From Conexivisphaerales archaeon (GTDB lineage Archaea > Thermoproteota > Nitrososphaeria > Conexivisphaerales > DTJL01): 13,068 nucleotides of DNA. Position 1 is the stretch's first letter. Each line of letters starts with the position of its first letter. The position numbers were made by a program, and so were the translations under genes. Positions 1,376-9,796 of the stretch are shown in pieces. The DNA lies in NCBI GenBank assembly GCA_049509455.1, contig JBEKZX010000075.1, positions 1 to 13,068 of the forward strand, given 5' to 3'. Below the pieces are notes generated by a model. The model ran no database searches and had not been told where the DNA came from. It saw nothing but the letters and a program-made list of their open reading frames with translations.

Positions 1376-1620
1376 TGGTGGGAGCAATCTGCAGTCTAAG
1401 TTCGAAAATCGTCGCACTTTGATGCCAACAAGCCTTCAGCTCCGACTTGGATCGATTGCTTCACGAGGAACTTCGGACTTGCTCCCTGCGGTTCATGCCA
1501 AATGGGCTACAGGGCGTAGCGGGGTACCGGTTTTATCACGGACGCAAAGGTCGCTTATGCCGACCCCGCCAGCAACCCACATATATGCTCGCATCGCACA
1601 GGACACAACGTAAGGCTGCC

Positions 1621-2673
1621 TTGACGTCACCAGAAAGGGTTCGCGTCTACTTTGGGCCGGGCGGAGAGACGTTCGAAGCCGAAAGGGAGCCACGCAGCAT
1701 GGTCGACGTCGAAAAGCTGCGCGCGGACCTGAAGATCCCCTCCTACGTGGACCTCAAGCCGACGGTGATGCGCAGGGCCATCGTGGCCCTCTGGGCCGCG
1801 ACCACGGCACCGTCGACCTTCGGGAAAACCCGGGATAGGAGGAAGCTGGACTCCCCCCTACAGCCTCTTCTGATGGGCGGCGCCGCCGTCAAGGTCCTGA
1901 GCGCCAGCGCCAACGAAGTGGGAGGCCCCATGAACCGCAAGATCCACGACCTTGACTTCATCCTGCCCAAGAGCCAGGCCGGGAAGTTCGTGCAGGTGCT
2001 CTCTTGCCTGGAGGCCGTCGCTGGCTCCGAGTACATGCACTTCCTCACCTCGAACGACAGGAGGTTCAACGCCCTGCGAGCGGGCGAGAGGTACAGGGCA
2101 AGGGGCATCGACTGGGGCGAGGACGGACAGCCCTCGCCCAGCGTAGTTGACATACTCGTTGACAGGATAGAAATGCGCCACCGCATCAACGTACGAGAGG
2201 AGTTCGCCCTCTCGGAGAGGAACTTCCACACGATTGGGATGGAGAAGCTCATCATATCGAAATGTCAGCTGATCAACGAATACGACCCCAAGGTCGTCAG
2301 CCTTCCGCAGAGCGCAGCTTGCAGGATCCTCCGGTATCCGCCCTACAGAAAGGACAGGACCATCCTCGGTATGGAGGAGAAGGACATGCTGGATGTCTCC
2401 GCGCTCTTCATTGACGGAGGAGAGGACGGCCGGTTGGACATCGGGAGGCTGAGGCGGGCGCTGGACGACCGGAAGTTGCTTCTCACCGTCCGGTTGAACT
2501 TGGAGAACCTCGTTTCGGCGGAAAACTGGATGAAGACCAGGGGCCTCAACGGACATCAGATATCGCGCGTTCACGAAACGGGCAGGCGTATCCTTTCTGC
2601 GCTCCCCGTCGTTGACCAGGCCTGGTCCAAGCCCTGGTGGAACACCAACGTGGAAACACCTCTTGTAACCTGA
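1621..2673 (+). CDS. Pol-beta-superfamily nucleotidyltransferase (DUF1814/AbiEii/DUF2204-like motif pattern), function unknown
   Basis: Long ORF with strongly GC3-biased codons from about 1621. Motifs: LMGGAAV, RKIHDLDF (hDhD), VVDIL (third Asp), MEKLIISK and EKDMLD. The start is uncertain: TTG 1621 (TATA-like CATATATG at 1580-1587), ATG 1699 (GGAG 9 nt upstream) or ATG 1585. The track start at 1447 is probably too early. Confidence 0.75.
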   Translation: MTSPERVRVYFGPGGETFEAEREPRSMVDVEKLRADLKIPSYVDLKPTVMRRAIVALWAATTAPSTFGKTRDRRKLDSPLQPLLMGGAAVKVLSASANEVGGPMNRKIHDLDFILPKSQAGKFVQVLSCLEAVAGSEYMHFLTSNDRRFNALRAGERYRARGIDWGEDGQPSPSVVDILVDRIEMRHRINVREEFALSERNFHTIGMEKLIISKCQLINEYDPKVVSLPQSAACRILRYPPYRKDRTILGMEEKDMLDVSALFIDGGEDGRLDIGRLRRALDDRKLLLTVRLNLENLVSAENWMKTRGLNGHQISRVHETGRRILSALPVVDQAWSKPWWNTNVETPLVT

Positions 2674-2698
2674 CACGCCCAGGCTTCCGACGACCAGG

Positions 2699-2721
2699 CT
2701 CCATGCATTCGTAGCATGGAG
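2699..2721 (+). terminator. Hairpin downstream of the nucleotidyltransferase gene (possible terminator or 3' stability element)
   Basis: CTCCATGC-attcgta-GCATGGAG forms an 8-bp perfect stem with a 7-nt loop, 25 nt after the stop at 2673. Confidence 0.3.
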
Positions 2722-2808
2722 GCGTGGATGGAGATCGCTGTACTCGCAAGAAGCGCCGGGAGAGGGATTTGAACGCCATTTTACTAGTAAGAGGACTTTG
2801 AGTATGAG

Positions 2809-2815
2809 AAAAAAA
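2809..2815 (-). terminator. Oligo-T terminator of the HEPN-like gene
   Basis: A7 on the + strand (T7 on the -) begins 8 nt after the TGA at 2826-2824. Confidence 0.5.
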
Positions 2816-2823
2816 GATGAACC

Positions 2824-3538
2824 TCAAAGCTTCGCATGTTTTCCAGCGATCAGCGCTTTTTCCAAGTCTTGCAAGCTGAAGTTGTATCGCGGCCCTTTCA
2901 GTATGATCTTGGACCTTTTAGATCCGGACCCTGGGCGTGCAAGGTAATTGAACGCCAAGCCCCTCGAGAGCAACTTCCAGTTCTCAGTCGCCCTTGTCAG
3001 GTCCAGAAAGAGTATGTCAGGGCTTACAGTGAGCCAGAGTTCTTGATTGGATGCGATGCTGTAGCCTAGGAATTCGCGCGGGCGCGGCCTTGAGCGCACG
3101 ATGTCCAATTGCCGGCCGAGCGCGGCCCCAGTCAAGGATATCGCAAACTGCTTGGTCGGAGAGATCTGCTACGATCTGTTGGTATTGATGTGCTTGTCCA
3201 TTTCTGATGAGATCAAAGATAGCCCATAAAAGCTCGTCTCCTTTCGTGCTTCGGTAGGGCAAATCAAACTCGTCAAAGTCTGCGCAGAACCCAGGTAGCC
3301 TAGTGAAGCATTTCGGCTCAATCTTATGGAGTTCCGAAGAGAAATCAGAAATGGCTGAACTTGCAGCATCACCCCAGCAGAGTCTTGAAGCAAATTCAAG
3401 GATGCACATGGCTTGCCGTGCGAACATGAAATTTCCCCTTGATTTGGCGGATGGATTCCAGGCGACCGAATTCCAAGCGTCTTCGAAATCTCCCGCCATG
3501 AAGCTGTACAGGGTTTCGGGAGGGAGGTTTAGACTCAC
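2824..3538 (-). pseudogene. Frameshifted HEPN-like protein (about 238 aa if repaired) with an RNGQAHQY (RX4HXY) motif
   Basis: ORF 3538->3017 reads as protein-like up to ...WAIFDLIRNGQAHQYQQIVADLSD. The reading then continues in another frame as KQFAISLTGAALGRQLDIV...ALIAGKHAKL* (track ORF 2824..3135, open from 3168). The shift falls between 3136 and 3168. There is a TATA upstream and a T7 terminator after the second-frame stop. Confidence 0.65.
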
Positions 3539-3914: not shown

Positions 3915-4100
3915 ATGGCCACGAGGAAGCGAAGGTCTCAAGTCGTTCCAGTCTATGAGAAATTAGAGCCCGGGTCATGTTACATCATAAGCAAGAGTAA
4001 GAAAGATCTGTTGGTAGCATGCAATCGGGAAGGCAATGTGGAAGTCAAGAGAGTTCCTATACCGAAGAGAAGCGCCGAAGAAAGGCGCATGAATGAATGA
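3915..4100 (+). CDS. Small basic protein, putative VapB-like antitoxin (possibly a diverged AbrB-type)
   Basis: 61 aa with its own promoter. Its stop overlaps the PIN gene start (ATGA at 4097-4100). EKLEPGSCYII weakly resembles the AbrB 'L.i.pGd.v.i' segment. Confidence 0.65.
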   Translation: MATRKRRSQVVPVYEKLEPGSCYIISKSKKDLLVACNREGNVEVKRVPIPKRSAEERRMNE

Positions 4101-4540
4101 AGTCGCTCTTCGACACAATGCTCTATGTATCTTGGCACACCTCAGGCAGGCTACCTGAGAAGTGGCAACGCGCTTGGGACGAATGTGCATACAACGGGAC
4201 GCTGCTAATCAACGAGCTTTTGATTTCGGAGATTTACAACCAGTTGGCAAGAACAGTAGGCTACGAGAGCGCTCAAAATTGCATTATGAAAATTAAGAGT
4301 CTAAAGGGAATTAAGATGTTTCCGATAGATGAAGATGACAATCTGGCTATGGATGCGGGCCGGATACGGCTAATAGCAAAGCAGCATAAGTTGAATATCT
4401 CCCTAGTAGACTCCTACCTTATTTCGATTTCAAGGAAGACAGGCGCTAGGATTCACACGACCGACCACGTGATCAGAGACTTGGCCCGAGTAGTAAAGTG
4501 TGAAATGAACTACCTTCCATTAGCTGAAATCGGCGAGTAA
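4097..4540 (+). CDS. vapC: PIN-domain ribonuclease (VapC-type toxin)
   Basis: 147 aa carrying the PIN acidic set: SLFDT (D6), LISEIY (E45), NISLVDS (D105) and HTTD (D123). It is coupled to a small upstream gene. Confidence 0.88.
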   Translation: MKSLFDTMLYVSWHTSGRLPEKWQRAWDECAYNGTLLINELLISEIYNQLARTVGYESAQNCIMKIKSLKGIKMFPIDEDDNLAMDAGRIRLIAKQHKLNISLVDSYLISISRKTGARIHTTDHVIRDLARVVKCEMNYLPLAEIGE

Positions 4541-4693
4541 TATGGGACACCTTTCTGCACGGGGTACTGTAAAGTCTTCGGTTGACGGGGCGAGGTACCT
4601 GATTCTTCAGCAAGCGACAACTTGACAGCGCCCACAAAACTACTTATTATCTCGCCGCACCCCGTGGGGCCAAGGTCCCTCGCACCGACCTCC

Positions 4694-4700
4694 TTTTTTT
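4694..4700 (+). terminator. Possible oligo-T terminator of the vapC operon
   Basis: T7 run after a GC-rich stretch. It is about 150 nt past the vapC stop, so the assignment is weak. Confidence 0.3.
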
Positions 4701-4720
4701 CGGAAACGCGCCTAAAGCTT

Positions 4721-4742
4721 TTTCCCAGTATTTACTGGTATT
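4721..4742. promoter_or_regulatory. Operator copy A (TTTCCCAG-N6-CTGGGAAA family) upstream of the glutamic peptidase
   Basis: TTTCCCAG-TATTTA-CTGGTATT matches 13 of 16 arm positions. It is followed by CACTTAATAC (TATA-like) and ends 37 nt before ATG 4779. Confidence 0.7.
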
Positions 4743-4778
4743 CACTTAATACATATTCTAAGAACACCGTTCCATGCC

Positions 4779-5939
4779 ATGCAAAGAACCATATTGACAA
4801 TGGCGGTTCTTCTCGTTCTTCTGCTTTCTCCATTGATATCCGTCAAGGCGAACGGCGAAACCATCGGCACTCCGGAACAACCAAGCGAGGCCATCACGAT
4901 CAGGCAGGCGACCGCCGAAGCGTCATCGACTTTCAACGCCGCCGAGGCCATCGACACCGTCACCAAGGACGCAGTCTTCGGCACGGCGACGAACCAGCTG
5001 CAGTGGTCTCTAGCCAACTTTGGGTACGACTGGCAACTCGATAACGGTGCACCAAGAATCACGGACGTCGAATTGTTCTTCCTCCTTTCGAATCAGACCG
5101 GGCCGGTAGGCTGGCTCGTCGCGACCGTGACGCCTAACCTTGAGAACCTGCTTTCGTTATCGTCCGAAGGAGCGGTGTATCATTACACGGTGAACTTCAA
5201 CTACAGCTGGGCTGGCTACGAGTTCTACAACTCAAAGATCCCCGGCAAGACTCCCATCTATGAATCAACCCAAAGCTGGACCATACCCTCCGTCTCTCAG
5301 CCCTGGTCAGGCGCCTGCTCGAGCTTCGTCTGCGACTACTCGGTGTGGGCCGGCTTGACCGACCAGGAGGGCGGTGGCACGTCCGGTCAGAGCGGCTACG
5401 GCATCGTGCAAGCAGGATTCGATTCATGCATAGGCAGCACCTATTGGGTGGGCCTGGCATGCAACGGGCAGTCATTCGATGGATGGTTCGAGGTCTTTCC
5501 AGCCATCACACAATTCCCCATCAACTTCAACGCCAATTCAGGGGACTCGGTCTACTCGGACGTATACAGCTACGGCGCTCAAGGATCTAACTATTGGGAC
5601 TACTCCATAGTGCTGCTTGATTACACCGCGAACACGGGATATTCAACCGATACTAGCTTCGGCAACTTCAGCAAAACGGACATGGGGGTTCCGTACTACG
5701 CCGACGCGATGACCGAACAAATCGGCTCTCCCCTGCCGCAATTCAACCGGGTAAACATTACCTCGGATGTGCTCGTGAACGGGACATCCGAATCGGTGTA
5801 CAACCTGTTCCAGAGTCCTTACCAGTACTATATCTTGAACGAAGAACTCAATTCGACAGGCTCCGTGGCGGTGGGAACGACCGTAGTCTACTCGAGCGGA
5901 ATCTTCAGCACGGTCTGGTTAACCAGCCAAGGAACGTAG
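4779..5939 (+). CDS. Secreted glutamic peptidase, family G1 (eqolisin/scytalidoglutamic-like; Pfam Peptidase_A4-like), with signal peptide and probable propeptide
   Basis: N-terminal signal peptide (MQRT + hydrophobic core + VKA). G1 motifs occur in the correct order: YSWAGY, WTIPSVS, SVWAGL, IVQAG (Q211), GWFEVFP, SGDSV, ADAMTEQ (E313), LPQFNRVNI. There are two Cys pairs (C180/C185, C217/C228) and six N-x-S/T sequons. Confidence 0.85.
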   Translation: MQRTILTMAVLLVLLLSPLISVKANGETIGTPEQPSEAITIRQATAEASSTFNAAEAIDTVTKDAVFGTATNQLQWSLANFGYDWQLDNGAPRITDVELFFLLSNQTGPVGWLVATVTPNLENLLSLSSEGAVYHYTVNFNYSWAGYEFYNSKIPGKTPIYESTQSWTIPSVSQPWSGACSSFVCDYSVWAGLTDQEGGGTSGQSGYGIVQAGFDSCIGSTYWVGLACNGQSFDGWFEVFPAITQFPINFNANSGDSVYSDVYSYGAQGSNYWDYSIVLLDYTANTGYSTDTSFGNFSKTDMGVPYYADAMTEQIGSPLPQFNRVNITSDVLVNGTSESVYNLFQSPYQYYILNEELNSTGSVAVGTTVVYSSGIFSTVWLTSQGT

Positions 5940-5956
5940 CAGTCAACCACATCTGC

Positions 5957-5963
5957 TTTTTTT
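5957..5963 (+). terminator. Oligo-T terminator of the peptidase gene
   Basis: T7 run 17 nt after the TAG at 5937-5939. Confidence 0.55.
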
Positions 5964-6050
5964 GGAGTCCGACCCACAATGGATCAGGATCGAAGCCCGC
6001 TTCGGGAAAAGGGTCCCGGGTCCCCATGCCTAGGCGGTGGGGCGAAGGTC

Positions 6051-6728
6051 TCAGAGCACGACAAAGTGGAGCAGGACGATCCCTCCCCATTCGTCGCCAC
6101 CCACAACCGTGTAGACACCAGGATCAAAACTCTTGAAGCTGCCCCCGACGTAGTATCCTGAGAAGACCATGACTGCAGTCATGGAGGCTTCCGAGCCCTG
6201 ACAGCTAAGCGACGGGCCGCATACTTCTAGGTAAGTTGCGTTGTCACCGAGCGGATGGAAGACAAACCCCGCGATGGCGTATTCAACGGGGCAGTGATAA
6301 GCAACGGGCGGCCCCTCATAGAGTTCGAGAGGCTCGGCGGACTGCAAGTCCCCGATGGAGAGGTTCCCGCTGAAGACGAGGATCCCCATGGGAAGGTTCG
6401 ATGGCCCGCAAGGCCCCGTCCCAAAGCCTTCGTACTGCCATTGGCCGGCCGCCGACACTTGGAGGTCTTGGGAAGACGGGTTGTACATCCAGACCGAAAT
6501 CAGGACCTCTTCCCCTTCGGGTATCGAAGTGCCATTGACGGACAGGTGCAACTGTAGTCCGCGAATTGACTGGACGGAAACCGACGAGGCCGCTGGGGCG
6601 TAATCGTCGCCTGCCAGGTGGGGCCCCCACTCTAGAAGAGCGCCGGACATCACAGCCAACGTCACCATCGCCAAGGCCGCCAATTCGAGGCTTTTTCGGA
6701 GCAAGCCCTTCCCCTCAATCGGATTCAT
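6051..6728 (-). CDS. Membrane-anchored exported beta-rich (Ig-like) protein, function unknown
   Basis: An N-terminal hydrophobic anchor (LELAALAMVTLAVMSGALL) is followed by a beta-strand-rich domain with 4 Cys (GPCGP, HCP, VCGPSLSC), sequons (NGT, NLS, NAT) and a C-terminal PGVYTVVGGDEWG..LLHF strand motif. The start is ATG 6728 or ATG 6752. Confidence 0.8.
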   Translation of the reverse strand: MNPIEGKGLLRKSLELAALAMVTLAVMSGALLEWGPHLAGDDYAPAASSVSVQSIRGLQLHLSVNGTSIPEGEEVLISVWMYNPSSQDLQVSAAGQWQYEGFGTGPCGPSNLPMGILVFSGNLSIGDLQSAEPLELYEGPPVAYHCPVEYAIAGFVFHPLGDNATYLEVCGPSLSCQGSEASMTAVMVFSGYYVGGSFKSFDPGVYTVVGGDEWGGIVLLHFVVL

Positions 6729-6823
6729 GTCCGTCCCCGAGGGAACTGCCATTCAAATCCTCAACAGCCCCCCGCTTCCACAACATGGATCGATGAACTA
6801 TTTGTGCCGACGACTAATGGGCG

Positions 6824-6845
6824 TTTCCCAGCATAAACTGGGAAA
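6824..6845. promoter_or_regulatory. Operator copy B (perfect palindrome) between the divergent surface-protein and regulator genes
   Basis: TTTCCCAG-CATAAA-CTGGGAAA has perfect 8-bp arms. It ends 7 nt before the regulator ATG at 6853 and 38 nt before a minus-strand ATG at 6786. Confidence 0.8.
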
Positions 6846-6852
6846 ACCTAAT

Positions 6853-7370
6853 ATGTGGAGAAGGGGAAATTGGCTCCGAGACGTGAGGCTATCAACCATC
6901 GGGACGCTGCTGATCACAGTACTTGCCGTGCTAGTCACTTCCTTCTTCCTCCTGAACCTCACTTCCCCGCCATTTGGCCATGGAACGGCCTCTGGGGGGA
7001 TTGCCGAGGAGGTGCTCGGGGTGCTGGCCCTCCCAGTCACGACCCTGAGCTGGGCAATGGTAGGGTTGGCGTTCATCGTCGACAGGAACGGAAGATTGGC
7101 AATGAGGAAGGCCGGCGTCGACGAGGAAGTTTACGACGTAATGGTGAAGATGAGGGGAGCGAAGTCGAGGCTGGCAACAAGCCTAGGCACCGATCCGAAC
7201 TTGCGGAAATCACTGGCCTGGACTGGAAGGAGGTGGACCGCGACCTTGAGCTGCTTGAGAAGTACGGAATCGTATCCCTGTTCGCTGAATCAGGGGCCAT
7301 CAAGATCTACGGGCTCACCCAGCAAGGGAGGCTGCTCGTGGACCTCTTGACCGAGATGCTGAAGGATTGA
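6853..7370 (+). pseudogene. Frameshifted membrane-anchored winged-HTH (ArsR-like) transcription regulator: 2 TM + C-terminal wHTH
   Basis: Frame 1 (track 6727..7350) encodes two TM helices and ...VYDVMVKMRGAKSRLA. Near 7177 the sensible reading moves to frame 3 (track 6855..7370): KPRHRSELAEITGLDWKEVDRDLELLEKYGIV...YGLTQQGRLLVDLL*, a clear wHTH with the 'Y.LT..G' wing. The net loss is 3n+1 nt. The start is ATG 6853 or GTG 6883. Confidence 0.8.
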
Positions 7371-7417
7371 ACTATGTTGGGTGGTATTCGTGCGAAATAC
7401 TCACAAGGATTTCAGCC

Positions 7418-7439
7418 TTTCTCATACCGCTCTGGGAAA
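7418..7439. promoter_or_regulatory. Operator copy C upstream of the 196-aa surface protein
   Basis: TTTCTCAT-ACCGCT-CTGGGAAA matches 14 of 16 arm positions. It is followed by CTCTCATATC and ends 37 nt before ATG 7476. Confidence 0.72.
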
Positions 7440-7475
7440 CTCTCATATCGGACCTCGGAGACAATCTGCTAAGCG

Positions 7476-8066
7476 ATGAGTGTGCGCGCCAGGAAGACCG
7501 CTGCCGTGTCTGGGATCATCGCAATAATTGCGCTTGTGATCGTGGTTGTGGTTTTCATCAATTCCATGAATGTCGGCGGTTGCACGTCCTCCGTGGAATA
7601 CGTGAACGATGTAAAGTGCAATGATGCGCCAGCCAGCCTGCCTCTGCTGGGTCCAGGCTGCACGGCAGAGATATACGTCACGTACTTTCTGGGCACAAGC
7701 GTACCGGAGAACCTGTCTCAACTCTCCCCCATTTACAAGGTGTCCGCCTACGATCTCAACGTCTCCTTGGTCACCGATGGCGAAGTGGTCGTGAACTCGT
7801 CCCTCTTATCCGGGCCTTCCTTGACGAACGTGAACACGACGGTCATGTATACCATCACCGCTTCGAATAATGCCTTTGGGACCTACATCCTGGGGGTGCA
7901 CGGTTCATGGTGCCCTGGAATCTTCTTCATGGTCGGTTCCAGGATTGAGAGCGTCACCATAAGCATGATACCCATCACTCACGGGTGTTCACCATCGGCA
8001 GTAGCCATGACGGAGGTGAAGGGGGTCCGCATCATCCCGAATGAAGCGGAGTTACCCGTAGGTTGA
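7476..8066 (+). CDS. Membrane-anchored exported protein, Cys-containing and beta-rich, function unknown
   Basis: 196 aa. A basic N-terminus (RARK) and one TM helix (GIIAIIALVIVVVVFI) precede an exported domain with 5 Cys and 4 sequons (NLS, NVS, NSS, NTT). Confidence 0.82.
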   Translation: MSVRARKTAAVSGIIAIIALVIVVVVFINSMNVGGCTSSVEYVNDVKCNDAPASLPLLGPGCTAEIYVTYFLGTSVPENLSQLSPIYKVSAYDLNVSLVTDGEVVVNSSLLSGPSLTNVNTTVMYTITASNNAFGTYILGVHGSWCPGIFFMVGSRIESVTISMIPITHGCSPSAVAMTEVKGVRIIPNEAELPVG

Positions 8067-8865: not shown

Positions 8866-9759
8866 TCATCCATAGAAGGATACCGTTACGTTCACGGACA
8901 ATCCCCCCGTAACGTTACCGTTCTGAACCCATACAACTATCTGCCCTGCATCAAGATTGTAGATAAGTGGCGTCCCCGATGGAAGAGTTGTCCAGCCAAA
9001 CGTCGAGCAGAGGCCGCCTGTGCAATAATCCACTTCAATAGTCGCCGTGTCGTTACTCGACCCGTAGACGAATAGAAAGACTGGCGTGGAGGTCGTGAAG
9101 TTGGCCAGCATGACCTGCGACGCGCAGGAAAACGACTCTCCGTTGAAGCTATTAAAACCGCAATTGGGAGTGGCGGGGGGAAGTGTCACATTCGAGTTGT
9201 TCCCGTAAGCCAACAGTAGGCCCAACACCTGCGAGAGGTCCGCTTGGCTGCTCTGCAGCTGGGCGACCTCCTGCTCCAGGTTCGATAGCTGGGATGCGTT
9301 GACTTGGTTGGATTGGAGTTGTTTCAACAGGTTCTGAATCGTGTCTTGCTGCGTGCGAACTTGCCCCTGAAGGGACTGCTGGGTCAAGACGGTGAAGGAA
9401 CCGAGAACAATCAGCACGACCAAGGAGATCGCCAGCACGCCCGTAAGGAGATTCATCCTCTCGACTCGGGCTGCTGACGGCCGTGCTACCGATCGAACGG
9501 TAAGGCGAATGGCCTCTCTGCCATCGTCTGTGAGCTGATAGAGCCCGTCCGAATTGGTCATCACCAGTCCGTCCAGCTTCTCAAGATGGTGTGTCAGATG
9601 GCCGCTGCTGGTGACGTTCACCTTCCTCTTCAGATCAGAGAAGCCAAGGGGCGAATCGGAAAGAGCGTGCAATATCTCCATCCTGATGGGATGACTTAGC
9701 GCCTCAAAGAGGTCGGCCCTCTCCTTGCTGAACTCGTCGTCTGACTGATCGCCGCTCAA
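8866..9759 (-). CDS. Membrane-tethered ArsR-type winged-HTH regulator: wHTH - TM - coiled coil - exported domain
   Basis: N-terminal LFEALSHPIRMEILHAL...FSDLKRK...SSGHLTHHLEKLDGLV...GLYQLTDDGREA (ArsR-like wHTH), a TM helix (LLTGVLAISLVVLIVLGSFTVL), a Q/L-rich coiled coil, then a C-terminal domain with 4 Cys and many sequons. TTG start with a TATA (TAAATA, 9789-9784) about 25 nt upstream. Confidence 0.88.
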   Translation of the reverse strand: MSGDQSDDEFSKERADLFEALSHPIRMEILHALSDSPLGFSDLKRKVNVTSSGHLTHHLEKLDGLVMTNSDGLYQLTDDGREAIRLTVRSVARPSAARVERMNLLTGVLAISLVVLIVLGSFTVLTQQSLQGQVRTQQDTIQNLLKQLQSNQVNASQLSNLEQEVAQLQSSQADLSQVLGLLLAYGNNSNVTLPPATPNCGFNSFNGESFSCASQVMLANFTTSTPVFLFVYGSSNDTATIEVDYCTGGLCSTFGWTTLPSGTPLIYNLDAGQIVVWVQNGNVTGGLSVNVTVSFYG

Positions 9760-9769
9760 CGGTCATCTC

Positions 9770-9796
9770 TAGGAACACTGCTGTATTTAGTTCCTA
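9770..9796. promoter_or_regulatory. Inverted repeat bracketing the TATA box of the ArsR-type regulator (candidate autoregulatory site)
   Basis: TAGGAAC-N13-GTTCCTA. The minus-strand TATA (TAAATA) lies within the spacer. Confidence 0.5.

Follow-up and report, generated by a model that had tools for sequence, protein, structure and literature searches.

We analysed a stretch of 13,068 bp (hereafter, the window), which is the entire contig C114 of a metagenome-assembled genome (MAG) from an uncultured soil archaeon of the order Conexivisphaerales (genome label G000; 2.05 Mb, 140 contigs, 58% GC). The window holds three copies of a 22-bp palindrome, TTTCCCAG-N6-CTGGGAAA. This palindrome is most probably the operator of a membrane-anchored winged helix-turn-helix (wHTH) protein encoded beside it, a predicted regulator that would control its own gene as well as those of an exported glutamic peptidase and of two N-terminally anchored proteins, T2 and T3 (Table 1). 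The reading draws on computed site clustering, conservation, covariation, promoter geometry, protein fold and transmembrane (TM) segments.

A re-scan of the window recovered the three sites listed in the original prediction, a note made from this DNA alone, at the same coordinates and with the same arm matches (13/16, 16/16 and 14/16, in order of position), and all three are indeed intergenic. Among 200 dinucleotide shuffles of the window, the mean number of matches was 0.07, and none of the shuffles contained three. Across the 2.05-Mb genome, ten matches with at most three mismatches were found, three of which fall in this 2.7-kb stretch, including the sole perfect copy; the other seven equal the chance expectation (~7). 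Since the sequences flanking the three copies differ from copy to copy, the palindrome is not a repeat family, and the genome-wide scan together with these unshared flanks ruled out a miniature inverted-repeat transposable element or dispersed repeat. The outcome that would have counted against the original prediction, a motif scattered at random or belonging to a repeat, was thus not what the genome scan returned. We therefore regard as effectively refuted the explanation that the copies are chance matches or remnants of repeats or mobile elements. Its best arguments are the mismatches in sites 1 and 3 (three and two, respectively) and the seven three-mismatch matches that occur elsewhere by chance; against these stand the shuffles, the unshared flanks, the conservation of the site in other genera, and the intergenic position of every copy, with TATA-like box and start codon at a constant offset. 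No further credible site was found in the window at up to five mismatches, and a scan of G000 for half-sites joined to a TATA box gave no further regulon members above control patterns.

The proteins with two TM segments followed by a wHTH domain form a small family in non-ammonia-oxidising Nitrososphaerota (the order Conexivisphaerales and its kin). A locus search with an alignment of the wHTH domain only yielded 41 further loci encoding relatives of the regulator; of the genomes concerned, G006 is labelled Conexivisphaerales, and the others are “Thaumarchaeota”, Nitrososphaerales and Candidatus Gagatemarchaeum MAGs. Co-conservation of the motif with regulator homologues, a check proposed in the original prediction, was evident. 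For example, G004, a genome of the same genus, carries a perfect palindrome with another spacer 37 nt before the regulator start, with a divergent anchored-protein gene opposite. Similarly, the copy in G006, from another genus, has one mismatch and lies 34 nt from the regulator start on one side and 32 nt from a divergent gene for an anchored protein on the other, and in a further MAG (locus L054) the sequence TTTCACAG-N6-CTGGGAAA, also with one mismatch, lies directly upstream of the orthologous regulator. In the intergenic alignment of G000 and G004, the arms and the CTAATA box alone are conserved, and the N6 spacer differs. Genome-wide scans of G004 and G006 returned a single good copy each, adjoining the regulator, and in five regulator-less genomes of the order no copy was found at one mismatch or fewer. 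A two-mismatch match in G003 (L042) stands before a gene that looks cytoplasmic, and we attribute it to chance.

Aligned on the 22-bp frame, the operators of the family are palindromes of 16-22 bp, with a TATA box 2-3 nt beyond them on both sides and start codons 27-44 nt beyond. The TATA box is strong on the regulator side (agTATTTAT) and weaker on the target side. Overall, about 28 of the 41 loci have, 25-45 nt upstream of the regulator start, a TATA box directly adjoined by a palindrome or half-site. Products of the divergent genes are exported proteins with an N-terminal anchor, DUF4349+PKD proteins among them. The distant genome G035 supplies an independent second pairing of the regulator with a long, divergent A4 peptidase, encoded there by the divergent gene; no such sites accompany nine canonical short A4 peptidase genes of the order. 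In G029, the palindrome of that genome occurs three times within 3 kb, mirroring the arrangement of the window. In genomes of the GTCCG class (see below), the composite TTCGGACAAA-N2-TA occurs six to eight times per genome, compared with zero for the control pattern, and in the family loci examined these half-site-TATA composites precede genes whose products have an N-terminal anchor, several belonging to the T2 family. As a separate observation, loci L020, L023 and L027 from three genomes of genus g9 share a conserved 22-mer, TTCCCAG-AGCTTT-CTGGCATA, within ~1 kb of small (~95 aa) weak wHTH homologues.

The operator class changes together with the recognition helix across the subfamilies, which form five classes. 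The operator of the window's subfamily, TTTC[AC]CAG-N6-CTGGGAAA, goes with the helix WKEVDR, and that of the GTCCG class, TTTGTCCG-N6-CGGACAAA, with WKTVDRH. The remaining pairs are TTCCGAG-N2-CTCGGAA with WKAVDYH, TTAYCAG-TA-CTGGKAA with EWR[TS]VDWE, and GTCCTAA-N3-TTAGGAC with W[GNK]AVDYH. Conservation of an operator beside its regulator gene in different species, combined with covariation with the DNA-reading helix, is the pattern by which an autoregulator is recognised, and it marks the 2-TM wHTH protein, as far as sequence comparison can, as a predicted autoregulator.

The geometry of the promoters in the window follows the same plan. The TATA-like 10-mers pointed out after each site are real and stand at the same offset as in relatives, and this offset is identical in all four promoters (those of the peptidase, T2, the regulator and T3). 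The tRNA promoters of G000 have the form (C)GAAA-N2-CTTTAAA or CTTATA, their TATA box being centred near -30, and all four promoters match this format: CTGGGAAA is followed by -ac-CTAATAT, -cg-CCCATTAG or -ct-CTCATAT, and the fourth reads CTGGTATT-ca-CTTAATAC. The outer GAAA/TTTC of each arm thus takes the position of the TFB recognition element (BRE; TFB, transcription factor B) of generic G000 promoters, and the operator therefore overlaps the core promoter on both sides. The sites had been described as lying beside core promoter elements; the proximity is borne out, but they overlap these elements instead. The spacings reported for the three sites are likewise arithmetically right (4742+37=4779, 7439+37=7476 and 6824-38=6786), and the peptidase and T3 ATG codons lie 36 nt after sites 1 and 3. 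However, ATG 6786 on the minus strand cannot be kept as a gene start: it is out of frame with the Ig-like open reading frame (ORF) and opens a frame of 23 codons only, and the start of T2 is ATG 6752, with GAGGA 5 nt upstream, 71 nt from site 2. Nor does the regulator begin at ATG 6853, 7 nt after the site, as first proposed; this codon lies inside the TATA-like box at 6848-6855. Its conserved start is GTG 6883, 37 nt after site 2, which aligns with the TTG-AGG, TTG-AGA and TTG-AAG starts of its orthologues in G004, G006, G029 and G035.

This overlap raises the alternative that no dedicated regulator is involved, and that the palindrome is a compact bidirectional core promoter of back-to-back BRE/TATA units, possibly served by a specialised TFB paralogue and reused nearby. 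The outer GAAA, N2 and TATA-like box do follow the generic promoter format of G000, the TATA boxes stand at a fixed 2-3 nt from both arms, and promoters with a half-site only occur in relatives. Yet the inner CCAG...CTGG lies outside the BRE and is conserved across genera, and the unidirectional sites 1 and 3 retain a distal arm that no promoter needs. The motif is also rare (three to eight times per genome), was not found in regulator-less genomes and covaries with the recognition helix, so we consider a pure core promoter highly unlikely.

The regulator itself is a 2-TM protein with a C-terminal wHTH domain, and its gene in G000 is split over two frames. One frame, which opens M-RLSTIG..., carries TM1, a loop of ~19 residues, TM2 and the first helix until ~7182, and the rest of the winged helix is in another frame that ends at 7370. 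Compared with the same-genus orthologue in G004, 16 nt are missing at ~7176/7177, and the same gap appears in the protein alignment with G006; what is deleted belongs to the first helix of the wHTH (ELLRSM in G004). A strong TM helix at the N-terminus is common to the whole family, and in most members another hydrophobic segment immediately precedes the wHTH. Between the two TM helices lie from ~20 to ~180 residues across the family, and the variability of this outer stretch suggests that a signal is sensed in the membrane or outside the cell.

The AlphaFold2 (AF2) model of the G006 orthologue (mean predicted local distance difference test score 76) has two long helices followed by a wHTH and a C-terminal helix, with helices at 94-103, 110-117 and 121-133 and strands at 137-143 and 146-151 before the latter. 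A Foldseek search with the wHTH model gave MarR, CadC, SmtB and CzrA as top matches (E 4e-4 to 3e-3, probability 1.0). The modelled domain is thus of the MarR/ArsR-SmtB fold, with three helices and a beta-hairpin wing. None of the curated Pfam wHTH families scored above its gathering threshold, the HVO_A0114 family reaching 23.6 of the required 27.6 bits and HVO_A0261_N, HTH_45, HTH_5 and HxlR all remaining sub-threshold. The best sequence match of the family in the PDB was NmtR (E 0.005), and a collection of 5.8 billion proteins contained 11 relatives only, which JGI had named HxlR or ArsR family. The Ptr2/Lrp-type activators that had been offered as a parallel are no more than an analogy, given the MarR/ArsR-like fold.

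A second membrane-tethered regulator, reg2, is encoded in the window, with an N-terminal DUF7347 wHTH, and it is the most plausible candidate should some other protein bind the palindrome and the 2-TM wHTH gene be merely a target. Homologues of reg2 occur near family members in G004, G002, L078, L071, L091, L037 and L074, and in G000 the 2-TM wHTH gene is broken, reg2 is intact and seven to eight DUF7347 paralogues are present. Within ~4 kb of most operator-bearing loci (L058-L068 and others), however, no reg2 homologue is found; the full palindrome always lies directly upstream of the 2-TM wHTH gene, the operator class tracks the recognition helix of that protein, and the reg2 promoter bears a different inverted repeat of its own. 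We thus give binding by another protein a very slim chance.

Several findings weigh against binding by the 2-TM wHTH protein. The regulator gene is frameshifted in G000, no paralogue was found there with the G004 wHTH as query, and the G004 copy also looks disrupted, with frame breaks in the TM region. Mismatches are present in sites 1 and 3, and orthologous copies of these two sites are not available for comparison, because no same-genus genome was found to have the peptidase or T3 gene beside its regulator. The N6 and N2 classes differ by 4 bp in the distance between half-sites and so call for dimers of different geometry. Some loci also have a reg2-type wHTH close by, and the outer GAAA/TTTC part of the symmetry could stem from back-to-back BREs rather than from a regulator. 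As for the G004 orthologue (L010, G004:C3, 8560-8790), it apparently needs two frame changes in the TM region, and a 158-aa ORF from an internal TTG would retain one TM helix and the wHTH. These breaks may reflect sequencing error or real decay; the G004 assembly is presumably based on long reads.

The comparative evidence nonetheless gives strong support to the core of the original prediction, namely that the wHTH binds the palindrome, autoregulates and co-controls the exported-protein genes. It comes from the conserved arms around a variable spacer, the covariation with the recognition helix, the second regulator-A4 peptidase pair in G035 and the multi-site local regulons elsewhere. The regulator start codon, the role of ATG 6786 and the placement relative to the BRE had to be revised, and the 16-nt deletion was added. 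Binding, the sign of regulation and the signal are what we infer from these comparisons, together with a role in an envelope or extracellular-signal response. According to the mechanism that we propose, a MarR/ArsR-like winged-helix dimer would be held in the membrane by two N-terminal TM helices, with a short outside loop between them. Site 2, lying between divergent TATA-like boxes, would serve both the regulator's own promoter and that of T2, and sites 1 and 3 would place the peptidase and T3 promoters under the same control. Transcription would start ~30-35 nt after each site, leaving the peptidase, T3 and regulator mRNAs near-leaderless and giving T2 a leader of ~35 nt.

Because the arms occupy the BRE position, the bound protein would have to exclude TFB or cooperate with it. 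Repression, relieved by a signal sensed at the membrane or the outer loop, has in our estimate about an even chance; the BRE overlap, the MarR/ArsR fold and the targets that remain intact while the regulator is broken all point in this direction. Activation is a more doubtful possibility, to which the rigid site-to-TATA spacing (also at half-site-only promoters) and the weak target-side TATA boxes point, and a dual role seems rather unlikely. With the 16-nt wHTH deletion, the circuit may be non-functional in G000; a genuine deletion would mean that regulator and targets are now uncoupled, with constitutive expression of the targets under the repressor model. A bolder idea, which we consider distinctly improbable, is that the family comprises unrecognised archaeal one-component envelope sensors whose tether holds the promoters of exported genes at the membrane, coupling transcription to secretion, or whose outer loop is cleaved by the glutamic peptidase as a feedback switch.

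Table 1. Coordinates of the predicted operators, promoter elements and genes in the window
Feature	Position	Strand	Remarks
Operator site 1 (predicted)	4721..4742	.	Distal arm perfect, proximal arm CTGGTATT; 3 mismatches in total
TATA-like box CTTAATAC, peptidase promoter	4745..4752	+	Begins 2 nt after site 1; fits generic promoter format
Exported A4/G1-type (glutamic) peptidase, long divergent form	4779..5939	+	Signal peptide; PF01828
T2, N-terminally anchored beta-sandwich (Ig-like) protein	6051..6752	-	Family often near regulators of this kind
TATA-like box CCCATTAG, T2 promoter	6814..6821	-	Begins 2 nt after site 2
Operator site 2 (predicted)	6824..6845	.	Perfect palindrome, centre of bidirectional promoter
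TATA-like box CTAATATG, regulator promoter	6848..6855	+	Contains ATG 6853; conserved as CTAATA in G004
Predicted regulator, 2-TM and C-terminal MarR/ArsR-like wHTH	6883..7370	+	GTG start; frameshifted by 16-nt deletion at ~7176/7177
Operator site 3 (predicted)	7418..7439	.	Distal arm TTTCTCAT, proximal arm perfect; 2 mismatches
TATA-like box CTCATATC, T3 promoter	7442..7449	+	
T3, N-terminally anchored protein	7476..8066	+	No family assigned
reg2, second membrane-tethered regulator: N-terminal DUF7347 wHTH, TM, outer domain	8866..9759	-	Alternative candidate binder

The three genes downstream of the sites had been taken to encode exported proteins, and each product does have one N-terminal hydrophobic segment. 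The assignment of the first as a glutamic protease also stands at the level of family membership, with a score of 29.1 bits against Pfam PF01828 (Peptidase_A4; cut-off 22.3, E 8e-7). The window peptidase is long and divergent; canonical A4 members of the order reach E ~1e-30. With regard to the catalytic Gln/Glu dyad, it was aligned with five canonical A4 genes from the order: a Q-[ST]-G motif and one Glu are invariant, and Asp replaces the first Glu of the canonical motif AEWIVE in the window peptidase; no reference structure could be aligned to it by sequence. No Pfam families were detected in T2 or T3, and T3 had no Atlas match above 0.8. An Atlas lead to a BsuPI-type protease inhibitor for T2 was not confirmed, its AF2 model, a generic beta-sandwich, having matched nothing in the PDB below E 1e-3. 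BLASTP revealed no homology among T2, T3 and the G004 and G006 targets. At locus L009 (G004:C5, 537-1569), a reg2-type wHTH and TM segment are fused to, or directly adjoin, a T2-type beta-sandwich domain, and because of this the T2 fold may also serve as the outer domain of membrane-bound regulators.

Further observations concern the surroundings of the module. At 9770-9796, 11 nt upstream of the reg2 start, lies the inverted repeat TAGGAAC-N13-GTTCCTA, whose spacer contains a TAAATA-like box; it is a candidate autoregulatory operator of reg2. The seven to eight DUF7347-type wHTH genes of G000 (on C10, C56, C96, C119 and C136, and in the window at 9505-9717) lie in open frames of 300-700 aa, and their number points to an expanded set of membrane-tethered regulators. 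On the minus strand at 4690-4720, the sequence after the distal arm of site 1 reads aa-GCTTTAGG, a TATA box close to the consensus and directed toward the 3' end of a PIN-domain gene (4097-4540), which could drive an antisense or small transcript. A search of the window for Rfam families returned none, and the RNA fold opposite site 1 is ordinary (z-score -0.15). The PIN-domain gene lies upstream of the module in a region that, including 1447-3538, looks like a variable island.

To our knowledge, next to nothing has been learned so far of how non-ammonia-oxidising Nitrososphaerota control transcription. The family would provide a readable protein-DNA recognition code, with five operator classes, each paired with a recognition-helix variant, and small predicted regulons of exported proteins that include unusual long glutamic peptidases. 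Its compact bidirectional promoter, with a predicted operator overlapping both BREs, would make a clean in vitro system for studying competition or cooperation between a regulator and TFB, and the module offers a concrete hypothesis for the control of extracellular proteolysis in acid-soil archaea.

The regulator resembles known systems in parts of its design. It shares its DNA-binding fold with MarR and ArsR/SmtB, for which palindromes of 16-22 bp at the own promoter are typical; these proteins are soluble, whereas the present family has an N-terminal membrane anchor and passes no curated Pfam threshold. The bacterial proteins ToxR, CadC and TcpP are membrane-tethered one-component regulators that bind their promoters from the membrane and respond to envelope or external cues, with an N-terminal OmpR-type wHTH, a single TM segment and a periplasmic sensor. 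The one-component logic of a membrane-tethered wHTH is the same, but the window regulator is arranged as TM1-loop-TM2-wHTH, has a MarR/ArsR rather than an OmpR fold, and exposes an outer loop of ~19 residues.

Within the archaea, ArnR and ArnR1 of Sulfolobus acidocaldarius are the nearest studied case, membrane-bound one-component regulators of the archaellum with an N-terminal HTH and C-terminal TM helices, ArnR being an activator (PMC13286277; original work in PMC6396743). They too are archaeal membrane-anchored transcription factors that control genes for surface structures; they differ from the window regulator in the order of their parts, which is reversed here (TM-loop-TM, then a C-terminal wHTH), and in the BRE-overlapping site found here. 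A sequence relationship between the regulator and ArnR was not detected. The archaeal activator EarA binds upstream of the BRE (PMC13286277). Its site resembles ours in lying directly upstream of the core promoter, with presumed TFB interplay, but the window site comes as close as 2-3 nt to the TATA box and, in a bidirectional promoter, takes up the BRE position on either side. In the literature that we searched, ArnR and ArnR1 were the only studied membrane-bound archaeal transcription factors, and a search on such regulators and on Conexivisphaerales peptidases found no description of the module, in agreement with the original prediction, which had not recognised it, and no paper for HVO_A0114. 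The general design, a membrane-tethered wHTH, is therefore known, and the family, the operator code and the targets are new.

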